Assembly: GCA_964354535.1 (NCBI GenBank)
Contig: CAYHAJ010000294.1
Coordinates: 5,067-69,066, forward strand
Reading direction: 5' to 3'
DNA: 64,000 nt
Source of the DNA: an uncultured Pirellulales bacterium
GTDB taxonomy: Bacteria; Planctomycetota; Phycisphaerae; Sedimentisphaerales; Anaerobacaceae
Both the position numbers and the translations under genes were made by a program. Shown piece by piece: positions 5,177 through 63,424 of this stretch. Positions within the stretch are counted from its first letter, which is position 1. Each line of letters begins with the position of its first letter. A model generated the notes under the pieces. It searched no databases, had not been told where the DNA came from, and was given only the letters and a program-made list of their open reading frames with translations.

Positions 5177-6154
5177 ATGCACGGCGAGCAAAAGGTCGAA
5201 GCCATGCCAACCGATCGTCCGATATTCGGGCTGCCCGTAGACACCCGCATTCTCTTCTCCAACCATAAAGGCCTCTACAAGCGGCGCATTGAGAAGAACA
5301 AGACGAACCTGCTGCGGAAACTGGGTTTTCTCGCCCAATTCCTCGACGCCGATGAGAAGATCGTCTTCGTCACGACCGGCTGCTCCCCGTATACGACGCT
5401 CGAACAACTGACGGCCGGCGCCCTCTGGGTCATGCTGCTCAAACGGGCCTTGTTCGTGTTCACGAACAAGCGGCTGCTTCACATCCCCACGACCTGGAGA
5501 TTCGACTACCGGGGTTCCATTGCACAGATTCTGTACCAGGACTGCCGGCGGCTGCATGTCAAAGGGGGCCGGCTCGTCGCGGAGTATCACAACGGCAGGA
5601 AAGAGAAGTTCTTATACATTCCACGCTGCGATCGTGCGGTCATCAAGCACTTCCGATTCTCGACCAGTGAGTTCGACCGGCGCAGCGAGAATCCACAGCG
5701 GAATCACCTGTGCCCGAATTGCGCCCAGGTTCTGCCCGCCCGCACCGTCGTGTGCCCCGCCTGCGGGCTCGAATTCAAGAACCGGGCGACGGGCCTGACA
5801 CGCTCCGTGCTCGTACCGGGCGGCGGGTACTTCTACACCGGGCATCCTTTCCTCGGGGTCGGAGACGCCCTGGGGGAAGCCTATCTCCTGATTCTCGCCC
5901 TGGTGAGCCTCGGCCTGGCGCTGCTCGGCGACGGGGAGGCGATGTTCACCTTCCTGGTGTTTCTGGCGGCTCTGACCATCGAGAAGCTGGTCACCATCTA
6001 CCATTCGAACAGCTTCCTCGCCGAGTTCATTCCGAGGGACCGCAAGGCGCTCCTGAGCGGCCGACCGGTACAGAGGGTGCAAACGGAACAGCCGCCCATC
6101 CCGACGACACCCGAGCCCAAACGCCGGCCGGAAGAGATCCTGTCCGTCCGCTAA
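5177..6154 (+). CDS. Hypothetical membrane protein with PH-like N-terminal region and zinc-ribbon
   Basis: ATG 5177 is preceded by GGGAGG (5163-5168). The product has a CPNC...CPAC ribbon followed by two hydrophobic helices and a Pro/Glu-rich tail. No family name recognised. Confidence 0.65.
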   Translation: MHGEQKVEAMPTDRPIFGLPVDTRILFSNHKGLYKRRIEKNKTNLLRKLGFLAQFLDADEKIVFVTTGCSPYTTLEQLTAGALWVMLLKRALFVFTNKRLLHIPTTWRFDYRGSIAQILYQDCRRLHVKGGRLVAEYHNGRKEKFLYIPRCDRAVIKHFRFSTSEFDRRSENPQRNHLCPNCAQVLPARTVVCPACGLEFKNRATGLTRSVLVPGGGYFYTGHPFLGVGDALGEAYLLILALVSLGLALLGDGEAMFTFLVFLAALTIEKLVTIYHSNSFLAEFIPRDRKALLSGRPVQRVQTEQPPIPTTPEPKRRPEEILSVR

Positions 6155-47864: not shown

Positions 47865-47934
47865 GCGGAGTGCCGGGAATCCGACGGTGTCAGGTAGTTC
47901 AGCGAACTGTGCGGCCGGTGGTGATTGTATCGCC

Positions 47935-48052
47935 GCCGGTAGTCAGTAGTTTGCAGAAACTACGACTCCCCCGTCTCCCCCGAATCCGAGAAGCCTTCCG
48001 GCGGGCGAAAGACGGCAGCGGCGAAGCCGCAGAGTGGCGGCTGGGCCGGCAG
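47935..48052 (+). repeat. About 120-nt repeat, family 5, copy 1
   Basis: gccggtagtcagtagtt..gaaac.acga.tc.c...tctccc.cgaatccg.gaagccttccggcgg...gcggcg.agccgcag.gtggc.ggctg aligns along its whole length with 50736-50862 in the same orientation. Confidence 0.75.
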
Positions 48053-50735: not shown

Positions 50736-50862
50736 GCCGGTAGTCAGTAGTTCACCGAAACAACGAATCGCACTTCTCCCACGAATCCGGGAAGCCTTCC
50801 GGCGGCAATTCGTGTCCTTCGTGGCCGCGGCGGAGCCGCAGGGTGGCCGGCTGCGCGGCGAG
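50736..50862 (+). repeat. About 120-nt repeat, family 5, copy 2
   Basis: See 47935-48052. It has the same orientation and the same block order. Confidence 0.75.
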
Positions 50863-50881
50863 GTTTGAAGGGTGGCAGATT

Positions 50882-50966
50882 GTGAAGAGTGTGAAGGGGT
50901 CAGCTCCGGCCTGCGGCCTACCGCCTTCGGCCTGCGCCCCGCTTTCCTCCGTTCTCCGTGGCCGCG
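50882..50966 (+). repeat. Repeat family 3 (GTGAAGAGTGTGA.GG..CAGCT.CGGCCTGCGGCCTACCGCCT...), copy A
   Basis: It aligns with 51757-51869 and partly with 53116-53197, all on the same strand. Confidence 0.75.
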
Positions 50967-50989: not shown

Positions 50990-51391
50990 CTACAGGAATT
51001 CATCGACGAAGGTTTTGGGCCGGAGCACCCGAATGCCCGCCCAGCCGGACACCGCCAGCAGATGCCTATCACCGCTGACAATGAGTCGCGTTCCTCCGGC
51101 CAAGGCACAGGCCAGGAAGATATCGTCCTTGGGGTCGTCGCAGATGGGTTTGGGAAGGGGCGTAGTCTGCACAATCTGGGAGTGGACCGCCACCAAATCG
51201 AGGAGCGACGAAATGTCGATTCCCCTGTATCTTTGGCTCAGTCGCACGGCAACCTGCCGGTACTCCGCCAAAATCTCCAGGCATACAGCCAATTGGACCC
51301 TCTCATCGCGCCAGGCTTGCAGAATCCGATAAGGCGGTCCGCTGAAGAAGATCCCGGACATGAGGACGTTCGTGTCAAGGACGATTCTCAT
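50990..51391 (-). CDS. PIN-domain toxin (VapC-like, PIN_3 type)
   Basis: MRIVLDTNVLMSGIFF.G.P..IL.AW...V.L......L.EY......PKDD.FLACALAG....IVSGD.HLL has the acidic PIN residues in place. It overlaps the antitoxin stop by 4 nt. Confidence 0.9.
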   Translation of the reverse strand: MRIVLDTNVLMSGIFFSGPPYRILQAWRDERVQLAVCLEILAEYRQVAVRLSQRYRGIDISSLLDLVAVHSQIVQTTPLPKPICDDPKDDIFLACALAGGTRLIVSGDRHLLAVSGWAGIRVLRPKTFVDEFL

Positions 51392-51651
51392 CGCTGTTTC
51401 CGCACGCGGGAGATGGTCGCCGAGACATCCGAACGTGTCAAGCCGGCGGCCCGGGCCTGCTTTTTCGCTTTCTTGACGAGGCGGTCAAAATCGTCCATGG
51501 AGGGCGGTCGGACCATCTTCAAGATGACGACGTCATCCTCACCCAGGACGATGAACTGGGTGCCCGAATCGAGTTGGAGCCGGCGGCGGATATCCTCCGG
51601 AATCACAACCTGGCCCTTCGACGACATTTTCGTGGTCGATACCGCTCTCAT
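51388..51651 (-). CDS. AbrB/MazE/SpoVT-family antitoxin
   Basis: ATG 51651 is preceded by AAGGAG. The product has TKMSSKGQVVIPEDIRRRLQLDSGTQF, the swapped-hairpin SpoVT/AbrB motif. Confidence 0.85.
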   Translation of the reverse strand: MRAVSTTKMSSKGQVVIPEDIRRRLQLDSGTQFIVLGEDDVVILKMVRPPSMDDFDRLVKKAKKQARAAGLTRSDVSATISRVRKQR

Positions 51652-51684
51652 GCGATTCTCCTTCTTGCCTGTCTTACCAGTAAG

Positions 51685-51713
51685 ATCGTACCTCAAAGCG
51701 TACCGGCTGTCAA
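51685..51713 (-). promoter_or_regulatory. Promoter of the AbrB-PIN cassette with direct GGTACG repeats in the spacer
   Basis: The minus strand reads TTGACA, a 17-nt spacer (gccGGTACGctttgaG), then GTACGAT with -10 TACGAT. It lies 34 nt upstream of ATG 51651. Confidence 0.45.
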
Positions 51714-51756
51714 GCCGGCAAGCGGATACGCCACAGCGTGGAAAGGGTCCCAGGAC

Positions 51757-51869
51757 GTGAAGAGTGTGAGGGTGCAGCTACGGCCTGCGGCCTACCGCCT
51801 CCAGCCCGCGATCCTCTGTCCTCCGTCCACCCCTCCTTCCTCCGTGGCCTCCGTGTGCTCCGTGGTGAG
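51757..51869 (+). repeat. Repeat family 3, copy B
   Basis: gtgaagagtgtgagggtgcagctacggcctgcggcctaccgcctcc...tcctccgt... It is colinear with copy A. Confidence 0.75.
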
Positions 51870-52091
51870 AAATCAGTTCTCAGTTGTCAGTTCCTGGTTC
51901 TCAGTCAGATTGCCGCGCCGGGCTCGCAATGACATGATCTGCGGAAATCGGGAGACTGCGGCTTCCCGCCTTCGCGGGAATGACAATGCTGCGCTCCTCG
52001 CACCTGTCTGATCCACGATGATCTCCCCTGCGGGCGAAAGATTTTTCGCCCCTACAGCCTGCCACCCGTCCCCGGATCTCCGGGATTTCCC

Positions 52092-52120
52092 TTGAAAAAT
52101 AGCTCATGATGTTGTATAAT
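52092..52120 (+). promoter_or_regulatory. Near-consensus sigma70-type promoter pointing into the repeat array
   Basis: TTGAAA (52092-52097), an exact 17-nt spacer, then TATAAT (52115-52120). It sits in a local AT-rich patch of otherwise GC-rich DNA. Confidence 0.5.
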
Positions 52121-52197
52121 ATATGACAAACAGAATAGCGGTCTATCGAAAGAAAGGAGGACAAAAGACGAATGGCAGAGGACAGAGGACGGCGGAT

Positions 52198-53010
52198 CGT
52201 GCAAAACAAAGCCAATCTCCCGCCGCGCCGGGGGGGCCGGGGGCTTGTACAAACAAACCCAATTGGCGAGGGGATCGGGGGTCAGGGTCCAGAGGTAAGC
52301 GACCTGACACCCAGTACCCGACCCCTGACACCAGGACTTTCGTGCAAAACAAACCCAATTCGGCCCGGCCGGGACAGGTGCCGACGAGCGAAAGATGCGA
52401 AACGAACCCAATTCCCGGCGGCGCCGGCTGGGCCAGGGCCGCGGGAGGCGTGCGACGCGGGGCAAATGTGCAAAACGAACCCAATTTCCGCCAGTCGAGA
52501 TACCCCACCATTCCAGTATTCCAGGCCCGAGCCAATCGTGCCAAACAAAGCCAATTGTCCCCAGATGTCCGGAAATGGGCGCGCACCGGCCGGGCCGAAA
52601 GGAGGCCCCCGCTGAGGATCTGTTGTGCGAAACAAAGCCAAAAGGCAGTAGCCGGTAGTCGGTAGTCAGTAGTCGGTCGGAAGACCGCCGTACAAACAAA
52701 GCCAATTCGCGCGAAGCGCCAGGAGGGACAAGCGCTTTATGGAAAAGGAGTTATGGTGAACCGGACCTCTGAACGGCTGCGGCAAAACAAAGCCAATTCC
52801 CGGCGGTGCCGGGTGGGCGGGGGACGTGGAAGACGAGAACCGTCGGGCGTTGTACAAACAAAGCCAAATTCCGGTGGTCGATATACCCCACTGTTCCACT
52901 ATTCCATCATTCCAGCATTCCAGTCCCGTCCCCGTTGTACAAACAAAGCCAATTCCCCCGTGGGCAGGCGGGGCCACCGCGGGAGCCAAGCGTGCGAAAC
53001 AAAGCCAATT
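52198..53010 (+). repeat. Array of 12 same-strand degenerate 19-20 nt core repeats (YGTRCAAAACAAAGCCAATT-like), irregular spacing, not CRISPR
   Basis: The cores start at 52198, 52246, 52341, 52395, 52467, 52537, 52624, 52689, 52779, 52851, 52936 and 52991. Each is followed by a short GC-rich potential hairpin. Confidence 0.85.
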
Positions 53011-53284
53011 CGGCCCGGACGGGTATCCGAACGCCGGCGTCCATCAGCGTTTATCGGCGGTTGACCATCAGGCTTCAGGCATTGGGCGGGAGGTGGGGAG
53101 GCAGGGATCGGGGGCCAGCTACAGCCTGCGGCCTATCGCCTCCGGTCTGCGGTCCTCTGCCTTCTGTCCTCCGTCCTCCCCCGGTGTCCTCCGTGACCCC
53201 GCGGTGAAGAGCCTGGATTCGCGCCTTCGCGGGAAGGACAGAGAAAGAGTTGGCGGGTTCGGCGGTGGGAGGATTCTCCCGTGG

Positions 53285-53767
53285 TCACTGGTTGGGATCG
53301 GCGGGGGCGGCCTCGAGCGGGGTGTGGGCCCACTGCTGCCAGAGAAGGGCCTCCTGGGCGGCCCTCCGGTTGGCACAGTAGGCGGTGACCTCGGTGCGGG
53401 CGGGGTCGAGGGCGCGGAGGTCGGCGGTCAGGAGGTATTCCAGGCCGAAGCTGCCGGCGTTGAAAAACGTTACCGTGGCGGATTGGCCGTCCGGGGCGAG
53501 TCGGGTGGTTACGCCGGGTTGGTACGTCACGAGGTTCGTGTGCCGGTACCGCTCCTGGGCCCGGCGGGCGACCCGCAGGTAGATCGTTGGGCAGTCGGCC
53601 GGGACCTCGAACGAATAGACGCGCTGCGGGTGCTGACGCAGGCTTGTGACACTCGTCGGGCCGCCGCAACCGCTGAGCCATAGCAGCACCGATAGGAGCA
53701 CTCTGGTCCAAGCGCGAGACAAGCGAGTGGATATCGTGCCCGTCTTTTGCAGAAGTTCAACATCCAT
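53285..53767 (-). CDS. Hypothetical lipoprotein
   Basis: ATG 53767. The product has a lipobox (LLWLSGC). No family recognised. Confidence 0.55.
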   Translation of the reverse strand: MDVELLQKTGTISTRLSRAWTRVLLSVLLWLSGCGGPTSVTSLRQHPQRVYSFEVPADCPTIYLRVARRAQERYRHTNLVTYQPGVTTRLAPDGQSATVTFFNAGSFGLEYLLTADLRALDPARTEVTAYCANRRAAQEALLWQQWAHTPLEAAPADPNQ

Positions 53768-53935
53768 GTCGGTCCTTTCTGTCGGCAGTATTATGGATGC
53801 AATCCGCGCCGGAGCAAGGGAAAAAGGGATAAGAAGAGTTGGAAGTGGGAAGTGGGAAGTGTCAAGTTGTCAGTTCACAGCTCTTAACAAGATACTGCCA
53901 ACTGACAACTGCCCACTGGGAACTCCGCAAAGCGG

Positions 53936-54958: not shown

Positions 54959-56254
54959 ATGTCAAGGAAAATGAAAATCGCGGAGCGGGCGGCGGCGGCG
55001 AAGGCGGCCTCGATTCGGCTGGGGGCCGTCAAGACCGAGGCGAAGAACGACGCTCTGACCGAGATCGCGAAGGCGTTGCAGGAGCATGCGGCCCAGATCT
55101 TTGAGGCGAATGAGCGGGACGTGGAAGCGGCCCAGACGAGCGGTCTGGCCGCCCCGCTGCTCAAGCGGCTGAGGTTCGGCGAAGGCAAGCTCGCCGACGT
55201 CTGTGCCGGCATCCACAGCCTGATCAAGCTGCCCGACCCGGTGGGTAAGACGCTCTCCGCCATCGAAATGGATGAGGGCCTGGAGCTTTACCGCGTCAGT
55301 TGCCCAATCGGCGTGATCGGCGTGGTCTTCGAATCCCGCCCGGACGCCCTGGTGCAGATCTCGACCCTGTGCCTCAAGAGCGGCAACGCCGTCCTGCTCA
55401 AAGGCGGCAGCGAAGCGGCCCACACGAACCAGATCCTCGCCGAGATCATCGCCCAGGCCAGCGAGGCGGCCGGCACGCCCGCCGGCTGGATTCACCTGCT
55501 CGAAACCCGCCAGGATGTCGCCGAGATGCTCGCCCTCGACGAGCAGATCAACCTCGTCATCCCGCGCGGCTCGAACGAGTTCGTCCGCTACATCATGAAC
55601 CACACGAACATCCCGGTCCTCGGCCACGCCGATGGCATCTGCCACGTCTACGTGGACGCCGACGCCGACCTCGACATGGCGGTGCGGGTCACCGTCGATT
55701 CCAAGTGCCAGTACGTCGCCGTCTGCAACGCCGCCGAGACGCTGCTGGTGGATGAAAAGATCGCCCCCGCCTTCCTGCCCCAGGTCCAGCCAGCCCTGGA
55801 GGCCTGCCACTGCCGGCTCAAGGGCTGCGAGCGGACGCGGGCGATCATCCCCATCGAGCCCACCACCGAGGAGGACTGGGCCACCGAGTACCTCGACTAC
55901 ATCCTCTCGATCCGGGTCGTGGACGGCCTGGACGCCGCGATCGACCACATCAACCGCTACGGCTCCGGCCACACCGACACCATCGTCACCGCCGACCGCG
56001 AGAAGGCCGAGCGCTTCATGAACCTCGTCGATTCCGCCGACGTCTTCTGGAATGCCAGCACCCGTTTCAGCGACGGCTACCGCTACGGCTTAGGCGCCGA
56101 AGTCGGCATCAGCACCAACAAAATCCACACCAGAGGCCCCGTCGGCTTGGACGGCTTAGTCATCTATAAGTGGAAGCTCCTCGGCAAAGGCCAGATCGTC
56201 GCCGATTACACCGGTCCCAACGCCAGGAAATTTACCCATAAGAAACTGCGCTAA
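54959..56254 (+). CDS. proA: Gamma-glutamyl phosphate reductase
   Basis: The 431-aa product is colinear with ProA (ANERDV, PIGVIGVVFESRPDA, LKGGSEA, VIPRGSNEFV, GHADGICHVYVD, CNAAETLLV, GSGHTD.IVT, FWNASTRFSDG..YG.GAEVGIST.K.H.RGP). Confidence 0.95.
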   Translation: MSRKMKIAERAAAAKAASIRLGAVKTEAKNDALTEIAKALQEHAAQIFEANERDVEAAQTSGLAAPLLKRLRFGEGKLADVCAGIHSLIKLPDPVGKTLSAIEMDEGLELYRVSCPIGVIGVVFESRPDALVQISTLCLKSGNAVLLKGGSEAAHTNQILAEIIAQASEAAGTPAGWIHLLETRQDVAEMLALDEQINLVIPRGSNEFVRYIMNHTNIPVLGHADGICHVYVDADADLDMAVRVTVDSKCQYVAVCNAAETLLVDEKIAPAFLPQVQPALEACHCRLKGCERTRAIIPIEPTTEEDWATEYLDYILSIRVVDGLDAAIDHINRYGSGHTDTIVTADREKAERFMNLVDSADVFWNASTRFSDGYRYGLGAEVGISTNKIHTRGPVGLDGLVIYKWKLLGKGQIVADYTGPNARKFTHKKLR

Positions 56255-63263: not shown

Positions 63264-63424
63264 CGCGTGTAAATCCCTGTCCAATAAGGCTTTATCTGCG
63301 GATGATAGGCGGTAGCCGGTAGCCTGTAGTCGGTGGTCGGTGGAAGACAGGGGTCGGGGATCAGGGGCCAGTTGCCGGCTCCCAATTCGCCTCGGCTCGG
63401 AGGCTCCGCGCGAGTTGGTTGTGG

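Follow-up and report, generated by a model that had tools for sequence, protein, structure and literature searches.

A promoter-headed array of twelve co-oriented A-rich repeats in a Pirellulales contig, a candidate modular non-coding RNA

A stretch of 64,000 nucleotides (nt) from an uncultured Pirellulales bacterium (contig CAYHAJ010000294.1, positions 5,067 to 69,066) was analyzed at its full length and is referred to here as the window. Its plus strand carries, behind a near-consensus promoter, an array of twelve copies of a short A-rich core that are separated by variable spacers. The array is a real feature, and related loci establish that promoter and array form one polar unit, physically coupled across many genomes. 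The array is non-coding; it is probably transcribed, as a polar unit that is read on the plus strand. The reading favored here, to which we assign a probability of roughly 0.4, is that of a modular regulatory RNA in which the cores serve as linkers, bound or cleaved, between structured modules.

The array and its relatives

An earlier note on this DNA, made from the sequence alone, had described twelve A-rich cores, all on the plus strand. All twelve were recovered, on that strand, with an invariant 12-mer (AAACRAASCCAA) that begins 5–6 nt inside the starts given there (Table 1), and their spacing, which had been put at 48–95 nt, was measured as 47–96 nt. A motif derived from 386 cores extends to about 23 nt (ATTKGRCN-AAACRAASCCAA-TTY); it is not palindromic and carries variant positions. 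A position weight matrix (PWM) that had been trained only on independent metagenome arrays from other samples scores the window cores at 23–37 bits and detects no further site of at least 11 bits anywhere in the 64 kb, whichever strand is read, and none in shuffled sequences. A degenerate 17-mer gave ten matches in the array, where 0.29 would be expected in the whole window, and one weak match elsewhere. Since the PWM finds nothing beyond the twelve same-strand cores, the window does not show the scatter of cores in both orientations that would mark generic repeat debris.

Known site classes were considered for the core and set aside. As minus-strand sigma-54 promoters the cores would have the spacing GG-N9-GC, not N10, and GC is missing from the GTAC variant; inspection yielded no convincing match to sigma-70, extracytoplasmic function (ECF) sigma factor, LexA, DnaA, parS, dif or attC sites.

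The predicted sigma-70-type promoter, TTGAAA-17 nt-TATAAT at 52092–52120, is present as had been reported and matches the consensus at 11 of 12 positions; the start site would lie near 52127. Promoter-like sites number 6 in the 3.5-kb region, against 0.6 expected. The AAGGAGG and the ATG that had been reported downstream are likewise in place, within a purine-rich leader. TATAAT followed by aTATrAC..A(A/C)AGAA also stands sense-upstream of arrays at loci L024, L060 and L104, and related arrays are headed by similar leaders rich in purines (GGAAGGAAGAGAC[ATG]). In these relatives the leader ATG is often missing, or a stop follows within 1–10 codons, which undercuts the strong ribosome-binding site and ATG as evidence for a gene, and the first core stands in no consistent frame.

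The coupling of promoters to arrays was assessed in related loci. Strong sigma-70-like promoters lie sense-upstream of 11 of 74 arrays, as compared with 1 of 74 antisense-downstream; the one at L076 is a perfect TTGACA-17-TATAAT, and those at L010, L080 and L051 match at 11 of 12 positions. Five GC-rich arrays from two metagenome-assembled genomes (MAGs) have a common upstream block of about 230 nt, which holds CGGCACGATTCGTGCAAC, a putative sigma-54 promoter by its consensus (GG-N10-GC, 10 of 12 positions). When metagenomes were searched with this block by itself, the query containing no core, 113 loci were returned. Sense cores were present in 67 of the 82 loci with at least 600 nt of downstream sequence, and at least three of them in 61. 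Altogether, 559 sense cores and no antisense core lie downstream of the block, and none lies on either strand in the 97 kb upstream of it; the first core follows the sigma-54-type promoter at a median distance of 193 nt. Because loci selected by a promoter block hold 559 sense cores downstream and none elsewhere, and because related arrays have upstream sense promoters of their own, the proposal that the promoter would drive the array gains strong comparative support.

The spacers are recurrent as well. By eye and by BLAST, window spacers 4, 5, 7, 8, 9 and 10 each recur in 19–32 other loci, 138 of the copies sharing the strand of the cores and 6 lying on the opposite one. The motif that two spacers had been said to share was confirmed in units 5 and 10, whose family recurs same-strand in 21 and 24 other loci, respectively; units 4 and 9 are also related (75% identity) and recur same-strand in 19 and 21. 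The module of about 90 nt between cores 8 and 9 varies from 89 to 92 nt among its copies and keeps the sequence islands RYAAGY ... ACAARGRnTTATG; RNAalifold found no consensus RNA structure in 31 aligned copies from AT-rich to GC-rich genomes. The CGGC core variant, seen in core 9, always comes after this module. A GC-rich hairpin, claimed to follow every core, is seen on inspection in about eight of the twelve units and is missing from the rest, units 5, 7 and 10 carrying short tandem-repeat modules; the CCCGGC-ggt-GCCGGG hairpin at 52799–52813 is present as described.

Module order differs in every array, and the modules show no positional preference. There are dozens of module families as well as many singletons, and the same module is found behind different core variants. 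Judged by their sequences, the spacers are modules drawn from a shared library. In AT-rich relatives the order of elements is promoter, heptamer-rich leader, core, 90-nt module and then tandem 11-mers of the 3' half of the core. No antisense targets of the spacers were found within the window, where the heptamer module alone recurs, on the same strand, with further (GTAGTCG)n copies at 47937, 50738 and 63307. Its (G)CCGGTAGTCGGTAGTC sites are at 52642–52685, 63300–63343, 47930–47950 and 50736–50751. This module, and GGCGGTAGCC at about 63309, show a possible resemblance to the RfaH ops element, GGCGGTAGCGTG.

A search of genomes with a two-core pattern identified at least 117 loci, a few matches being chance coding repeats that were set aside. 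The carriers belong to Planctomycetota, Acidobacteriota, Verrucomicrobiota, Zixibacteria and Sumerlaeota, with some Proteobacteria and Chloroflexota MAGs; among Planctomycetota they comprise Pirellulales, Phycisphaerae, Sedimentisphaerales, a Gimesia maris MAG (L042, with short arrays) and Tundrisphaera. The element is therefore not lineage-specific, as had been considered. Cores are confined to one strand in every one of the 117 loci. Outside the window, core-to-core spacings are 31–211 nt (469 intervals); complete arrays hold 3–13 cores (median 8). Genomes contain many array copies, and the core is nearly identical across phyla. No gene family is conserved beside the arrays in these loci beyond chance paralogues, and array orientation is not coupled to that of flanking genes (co-directional contexts, 16 versus 14 by crude gene calls). 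In two Verrucomicrobiia loci (L103, 2198–2265; L116, 1353–1420), a core block, GAAAATTnCnAAACGAACCCAAkTTT..CAAGCCGGC.., is kept upstream of ppdK within intergenic DNA that is otherwise unalignable.

Plain tandem repeats of the core, with units of 23, 62 or 68 nt, were observed at L031 (Thermomicrobiales), L030 (Sumerlaeota) and L081 (Alphaproteobacteria). Dense matches to the core pattern in viral contigs (L118–L141; IMG/VR UViG_2757320477; 28–31% GC), with spacings in multiples of 9, appear to be coding repeats unrelated to the arrays, and a plasmid database gave no match.

Readings of the array

The composition and the predicted folding of the array differ between its strands. Without the cores, the plus-strand modules are U-poor (T 12–13%, A 18%, G 38–40%), and runs of four or more T number 0 on the plus strand and 5 on the minus strand. 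On the plus strand, the cores have a predicted unpaired probability of 0.65 and the remaining sequence one of 0.36; on the minus strand, the values are 0.50 and 0.35.

In the model favored here, the promoter would drive a plus-strand RNA of about 0.9–1.0 kb, in which the A/C-rich, U-poor motif of about 23 nt would form twelve single-stranded linkers between GC-rich structured or short-tandem-repeat modules. The RNA would be the active product, and the repeated core would be the recognition site for a conserved trans-acting factor. By analogy with CsrB, RsmZ and CrcZ, the transcript may act as a multivalent binding platform, that is, a sponge or scaffold; alternatively, the core may be a cleavage site at which a precursor is cut into module RNAs. 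RNase E prefers RN|WUU. CCAA|UUY in the core fits this preference, so that an endonuclease site is possible. As a side effect, the minus strand, with its hairpins and the U-rich complement of the core, could hinder antisense read-through from the gene at 53285–53767. Among the four possibilities listed in the earlier note, a multi-unit non-coding RNA fits best. The model is favored by the strict polarity of cores and modules, their coupling to promoters, the non-coding character of the array, its RNA-like strand asymmetry, the constraint on the cores and the independence of arrays from neighboring genes. That a factor binds the RNA, or processing takes place, at the conserved core is put forward tentatively, at somewhat under even odds.

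Several observations weigh against the RNA model. Both types of promoter, sigma-70 and sigma-54, are consensus matches, and simple intrinsic terminators after arrays are rare (3 of 50). In about 15 of the block-selected loci, the same sigma-54-type promoter and heptamer/Shine–Dalgarno (SD) leader head protein genes, which encode an HNH_3 (AP2-like) endonuclease, an SPP1-portal-like protein, a sigma-70 region-4 helix–turn–helix (HTH) protein or an unknown 'ANRANAQKSTGPRTPEGKA' family (examples among L156–L251: L175, L217, L231, L242, L244; L159, L161, L174; L157, L171, L172, L237; L219). The promoter may thus be a portable module, and these genes point to a large, partly mobile-element-like putative sigma-54 regulon. 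Relatives in which the protein flanking the array is 70–86% identical have no cores at the equivalent locus, and the array is therefore accessory at this site. The scrambled order of modules is more suggestive of cassette shuffling, or of mobile DNA, than of ordinary paralogous RNA genes, and the islands of the 90-nt module, conserved without an RNA fold, would also fit a DNA- or protein-binding role. Finally, the better conservation of cores than of modules between related copies (88.9% versus 73.8% identity), which counts for the model, is partly an effect of ascertainment.

Some of these points are accounted for by the closest rival, a selfish or neutral mosaic repeat cluster in which modules are inserted or exchanged at the core, as a hot spot of recombination or insertion, the promoter is portable and any RNA is a by-product. 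This account is possible, if rather doubtful; it and the RNA model are not mutually exclusive. It accommodates the many copies per genome, the shuffled and diverse modules behind interchangeable core variants, the reuse of promoter and leader before unrelated genes, the vacant locus of relatives, and a window region that is filled with other repeats. In relatives (L144, L145 and L147), the 160-aa gene is directly followed by a convergent PD40/Tricorn-like gene, and the window differs from these loci over about 46.3–53.3 kb (array, PIN/MazE pair and several uncharacterized open reading frames (ORFs)), which places the array in a variable region. Two contigs (L142 and L143) that are identical to window positions 52980–53770, and encode an identical flanking protein, end about 27 nt past the start of the last core; short-read contigs stopping exactly at a core indicate that arrays break assemblies. 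The same account is weakened by the lack of a mobility gene or of inverted termini: no integrase, transposase or reverse transcriptase matched in the scanned ORFs within about 10 kb around the array, and none was associated with arrays in the 117 loci. Variant sharing between neighboring cores (261 versus 245 ± 9) is marginally above chance, so that target-site duplication has left hardly any trace. Neither the polarity that promoter, cores and modules have in common nor the U-poor strand bias is required of mobile DNA, and a near-identical core across phyla would be unusual for families of repetitive extragenic palindromic (REP) sequences or of miniature inverted-repeat transposable elements (MITEs). 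The strict polarity of cores and modules also argues against the simple MITE nest that had been suggested.

An array of DNA-binding sites for a sequence-specific protein, with a titrating, centromere-like, nucleoid-organizing or polar-barrier function, is unlikely. The asymmetric, conserved 23-nt motif would suit such a role, as would the unfolded islands of the 90-nt module, the cores being the sole A/T-rich islands in GC-rich DNA, and the tandem 11-mers of AT-rich relatives, which approximate one helical turn. Against it, the 47–96-nt spacings show no helical phasing, no candidate protein is linked to the arrays, and neither the coupling to an upstream sense promoter nor the transcript-like strand composition is explained.

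Still less probable is an insulator, or a series of stacked terminators read on the minus strand, where a hairpin and then AATTGGCTTTGTTTTG would make up each unit and block read-through from the gene at 53285–53767. The window array does lie downstream of this minus-strand gene, one unit (52813–52799) qualifies as a terminator, and terminator-like matches inside arrays are exclusively antisense (8 versus 0). These eight sites by simple criteria, however, are all that 12 kb of arrays provide, roughly one in three units of the window array lacks a hairpin, and the gene downstream of an array is co-directional at more loci (60) than it is convergent (36). Upstream sense promoters and a repeat number of 6–14 would also be left unexplained, and the tandem-terminator reading of the earlier note is weak.

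A protein-coding role, whether for small basic repeat proteins or for a 147-aa product, is very improbable. The 147-codon ORF exists as described, with its strong SD-like site and ATG. In AT-rich relatives of the Phycisphaerae/Sedimentisphaerales type, an ORF (MQNKPNF..QMNVNKVLTKDYENK..) is open across the 90-nt module, and third-position entropy in this module is slightly higher (1.05, 1.07 and 1.28 by codon position), a weak three-base periodicity. More than 500 clusters of database 'hypothetical proteins' of 54–116 aa lie on arrays (P0064–P0183 and others), with sequences such as MQNKPNF..QMNVNKVLTKDYENK..KNKPNTNPIQTQ; their ends are inconsistent, and they are probably spurious annotations. 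The cores fall into all three frames, as had been stated (2, 1, 1, 0, 1 and 2 relative to the ATG within the 147-codon ORF), which excludes a protein repeat. The module ORF is closed in Pirellulales-type and GC-rich copies, the module itself is not of constant length, neither the 147-codon ORF nor other array ORFs match a Pfam family, and no conserved reading frame of the kind that marks a protein-coding gene was found.

A degenerate or novel CRISPR array would have the same layout, in which direct repeats of one orientation and variable spacers come after a promoter or leader, and is barely conceivable given a variable, non-palindromic repeat of about 23 nt rather than identical repeats of 23–47 nt, spacers of 31–211 nt that form families common to genomes at 75–95% identity (six window spacers are each found in 19–32 loci), many arrays per genome, and no cas gene by Pfam in the main ORFs scanned at 40.5–62.6 kb, about 10 kb either side, in agreement with the earlier exclusion of CRISPR.

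Surroundings of the array

Coordinates of the array and its neighbors are collected in Table 1. Pfam matches among the main ORFs at 40.5–62.6 kb are PIN, MazE, aldolase, GH42, response regulator and histidine kinase, several ORFs having no family, and a transfer RNA (tRNA) also lies beside the array. Database homologues of the 160-aa protein beside the array bear the label Planctomycetes, which agrees with a probable origin of the window in Planctomycetota; an exact look-up of ProA retrieved no record.

The region around the array is a nest of other repeats. A long hairpin element of about 100 nt, in which the loop CTACGGCCTGCGGCCTACCGCC joins a purine-rich to a pyrimidine-rich arm, has three same-strand copies (50860–50960 and the two listed in Table 1), the latter two bracketing promoter and array. 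The element also occurs just upstream of the sigma-54 block at L057, L082 and L087. It may mark a unit boundary or be a terminator; the copy at 53081–53200 may be a 3' boundary or a two-way terminator that faces the gene at 53285–53767. Period-7 tandem repeats with differing heptamers fill the intergenic regions, and were located by Tandem Repeats Finder (TRF) at 48051, 50907, 51778, 51812, 51873, 52176, 52648, 53837, 53894, 58129, 63160 and 63306.

Two further observations concern array neighborhoods in other genomes. At L067, an array of 12 cores is preceded, 1.1 kb upstream, by a group II intron (5231–5427; Rfam RF02005, 124 bits), probably by coincidence. An uncharacterized protein family with the N-terminal motif ..ANR(A/L)NA(Q/K)KSTGPRTPEGKA..NA.KHGL is encoded beside arrays at L001, L037, L044, L052 and L063, in different phyla, and behind the sigma-54 block at L219; at the curated cut-off of Pfam, the family matches nothing.

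Table 1. Features of the array and its surroundings, in window coordinates
Feature	Position	Strand	Remarks
Flanking PIN/MazE pair	50990–51696	−	Pfam
Flanking long hairpin element, upstream copy	51750–51870	+	81% direct repeat with 53111–53172
Predicted sigma-70-type promoter	52092–52120	+	TTGAAA-17-TATAAT; 11/12 consensus
Purine-rich leader	52121–52195	+	SD-like AAGGAGG 52154–52160; ATG 52172; heptamer CAGAGGA twice
147-codon ORF	52172–52615	+	judged no gene: no Pfam, three core frames, unconserved in relatives
Core 1	52196–52218	+	12-mer 52204–52215; PWM 34.7 bits
Core 2, GTAC variant	52243–52265	+	12-mer 52251–52262; PWM 26.6 bits
Core 3	52339–52361	+	12-mer 52347–52358; PWM 34.8 bits
Core 4	52392–52414	+	12-mer 52400–52411; PWM 29.3 bits
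CCCGGCGGYGCCGG hairpin and G-rich tail, unit 4	52412–52464	+	family common with unit 9 (52797–52847)
Core 5	52465–52487	+	12-mer 52473–52484; PWM 36.8 bits
CCCCAC..(CATTCCA)n repeat, unit 5	52485–52534	+	family common with unit 10 (52868–52932)
Core 6	52535–52557	+	12-mer 52543–52554; PWM 35.2 bits
Core 7	52622–52644	+	12-mer 52630–52641; PWM 23.0 bits
Heptamer repeat (GTAGTCG)n	52642–52685	+	TRF period 7; other loci: 21 same-strand, 1 opposite
Core 8, GTAC variant	52686–52708	+	12-mer 52694–52705; PWM 24.9 bits
Core-to-core module of about 90 nt, ..RYAAGY..ACAARGRnTTATG..	52706–52776	+	core-to-core 52694–52785; 32 other loci, all same-strand
Core 9, CGGC variant	52777–52799	+	12-mer 52785–52796; PWM 27.8 bits
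Core 10	52848–52870	+	12-mer 52856–52867; PWM 24.7 bits
Core 11	52933–52955	+	12-mer 52941–52952; PWM 27.5 bits
Core 12	52989–53011	+	12-mer 52997–53008; PWM 34.2 bits
Flanking long hairpin element, downstream copy	53081–53200	+	weak microRNA-precursor-like matches, i.e., a long imperfect hairpin
160-aa gene	53285–53767	−	convergent to array
proA	54959–56254		Aldedh Pfam matches only on syntenic counterparts in related loci

Comparison with known systems

The earlier statement that no named element class has this structure agrees with the searches made here. At the gathering score, Rfam reports only two tRNAs in the window; with permissive thresholds at 51700–53300 it yields only sub-threshold matches at chance level, and on the arrays of eight related loci nothing relevant. 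Rfam 15 and the searchable literature yielded no description of the element, even when the literature was queried with the exact sequences of core and modules. It is distinct from the Rhodopirellula-1 and Solibacter-1 motifs (Weinberg 2010), and none of the 200 supplementary files that were searched contains the core.

With CRISPR loci the array has in common a leader or promoter, co-oriented repeats, variable spacers and a content unique to each array. It is distinguished from them by spacers of irregular length that belong to recurrent families, by a short, A-rich repeat and by the lack of cas genes nearby. Integron cassette arrays likewise consist of promoter-proximal, co-oriented, exchangeable units bounded by a short conserved site. 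The units here, in contrast, are 50–95 nt long and contain no genes; no attC-type R''/R' pair (RYYYAAC...GTTRRRY) was seen, the core having no reverse-complement partner on the same strand, and neither intI nor attI was found beside the array, the scanned flanking ORFs giving no integrase match. Type III toxin–antitoxin RNAs of the ToxI kind are perfect tandem repeats upstream of a toxin gene. The array units, by contrast, do not repeat in tandem, the gene that comes next is convergent, and the neighboring PIN/MazE pair, which is encoded on the opposite strand, forms a type II module of its own.

Small dispersed repeats of cyanobacteria, reportedly described by Elhai et al. in 2008, are said to be very short elements that nest among heptamer and other repeats, as dispersed single insertions and not as promoter-headed polar arrays. 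Cyanobacterial heptamers of the short tandemly repeated repetitive (STRR) type have counterparts among the components of the window array; the core itself is no heptamer repeat. Comparable tandem heptamers include TAACTGA repeats, which cross phyla and have no known function, like the period-7 repeats of the window (PMC4679880), and G-rich heptamers (PMC4692102). In make-up, the arrays are closer to REP clusters, bacterial interspersed mosaic elements (BIMEs) and REP doublets forming hairpins (REPINs), which are multi-copy extragenic mosaics of constant and other short motifs (PMC3116915; PMC3733652). Several array spacers are themselves REP-like hairpins, including GTAG-tagged hairpins at a Zixibacteria locus (L115). 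Palindromic units in inverted or alternating pairs define the REP-type elements; here, by contrast, the constant motif is non-palindromic and crosses phyla, the units are co-oriented on one strand per locus behind a promoter of their own, and no transposase family, such as the REP-associated tyrosine transposases (RAYTs), recurred among the 117 loci.

More generally, the promoter-plus-array family apparently has not been described so far, with many copies in Planctomycetota and a shorter form in several other phyla. If the RNA model holds, many large-genome soil and sediment bacteria, among them Planctomycetota, Acidobacteriota and Verrucomicrobiota, would express dozens of copies of a modular RNA whose conserved motif engages a central factor; global regulation or the processing of RNA would then have an additional layer in phyla with little-known riboregulation; if the DNA readings hold, the arrays would be a new kind of polar, promoter-carrying mosaic repeat. 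For annotation, the arrays matter because they break short-read assemblies and spawn hundreds of spurious 'hypothetical protein' families, and they mark a large set of sites under sigma-54-type promoters.

The sponge small RNAs CsrB/RsmZ and CrcZ/CrcY (the latter of Pseudomonas) resemble the array in layout only, with many short single-stranded motifs between hairpins. CrcZ has a sigma-54 promoter. Its A-rich motifs are comparable to the twelve predicted single-stranded A-rich cores between GC hairpins, and relatives of the array have sigma-54-type promoters. Unlike these RNAs, the arrays are multi-copy in each genome, their modules are shuffled, and neither sequence nor Rfam comparison gives a match; the motif, of about 23 nt with the consensus ATTKGRCNAAACRAASCCAATTY, is neither the GGA of CsrA nor the AAnAAnAA of Hfq/Crc, and is unrelated to both. 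The array is set apart by defining features from CRISPR, REP/BIME elements and integron cassettes, and by its motif from known sponge RNAs. A broader proposal, speculative and held with less confidence than the RNA model for the window, is that of a cross-phylum class of regulated, multi-copy 'beads-on-a-string' non-coding RNAs, in which a strongly conserved A-rich linker, recurring 6–14 times, would be where a cellular factor, itself conserved, docks or cleaves; promoters of sigma-54 or sigma-70 type may be lineage-specific, and structured modules may be swapped at the linkers. Such a class would be a third kind of repeat–spacer RNA array beside CRISPR and sponge small RNAs, one that resembles mosaic extragenic repeat clusters in its make-up and sponge and CRISPR RNAs in its layout.

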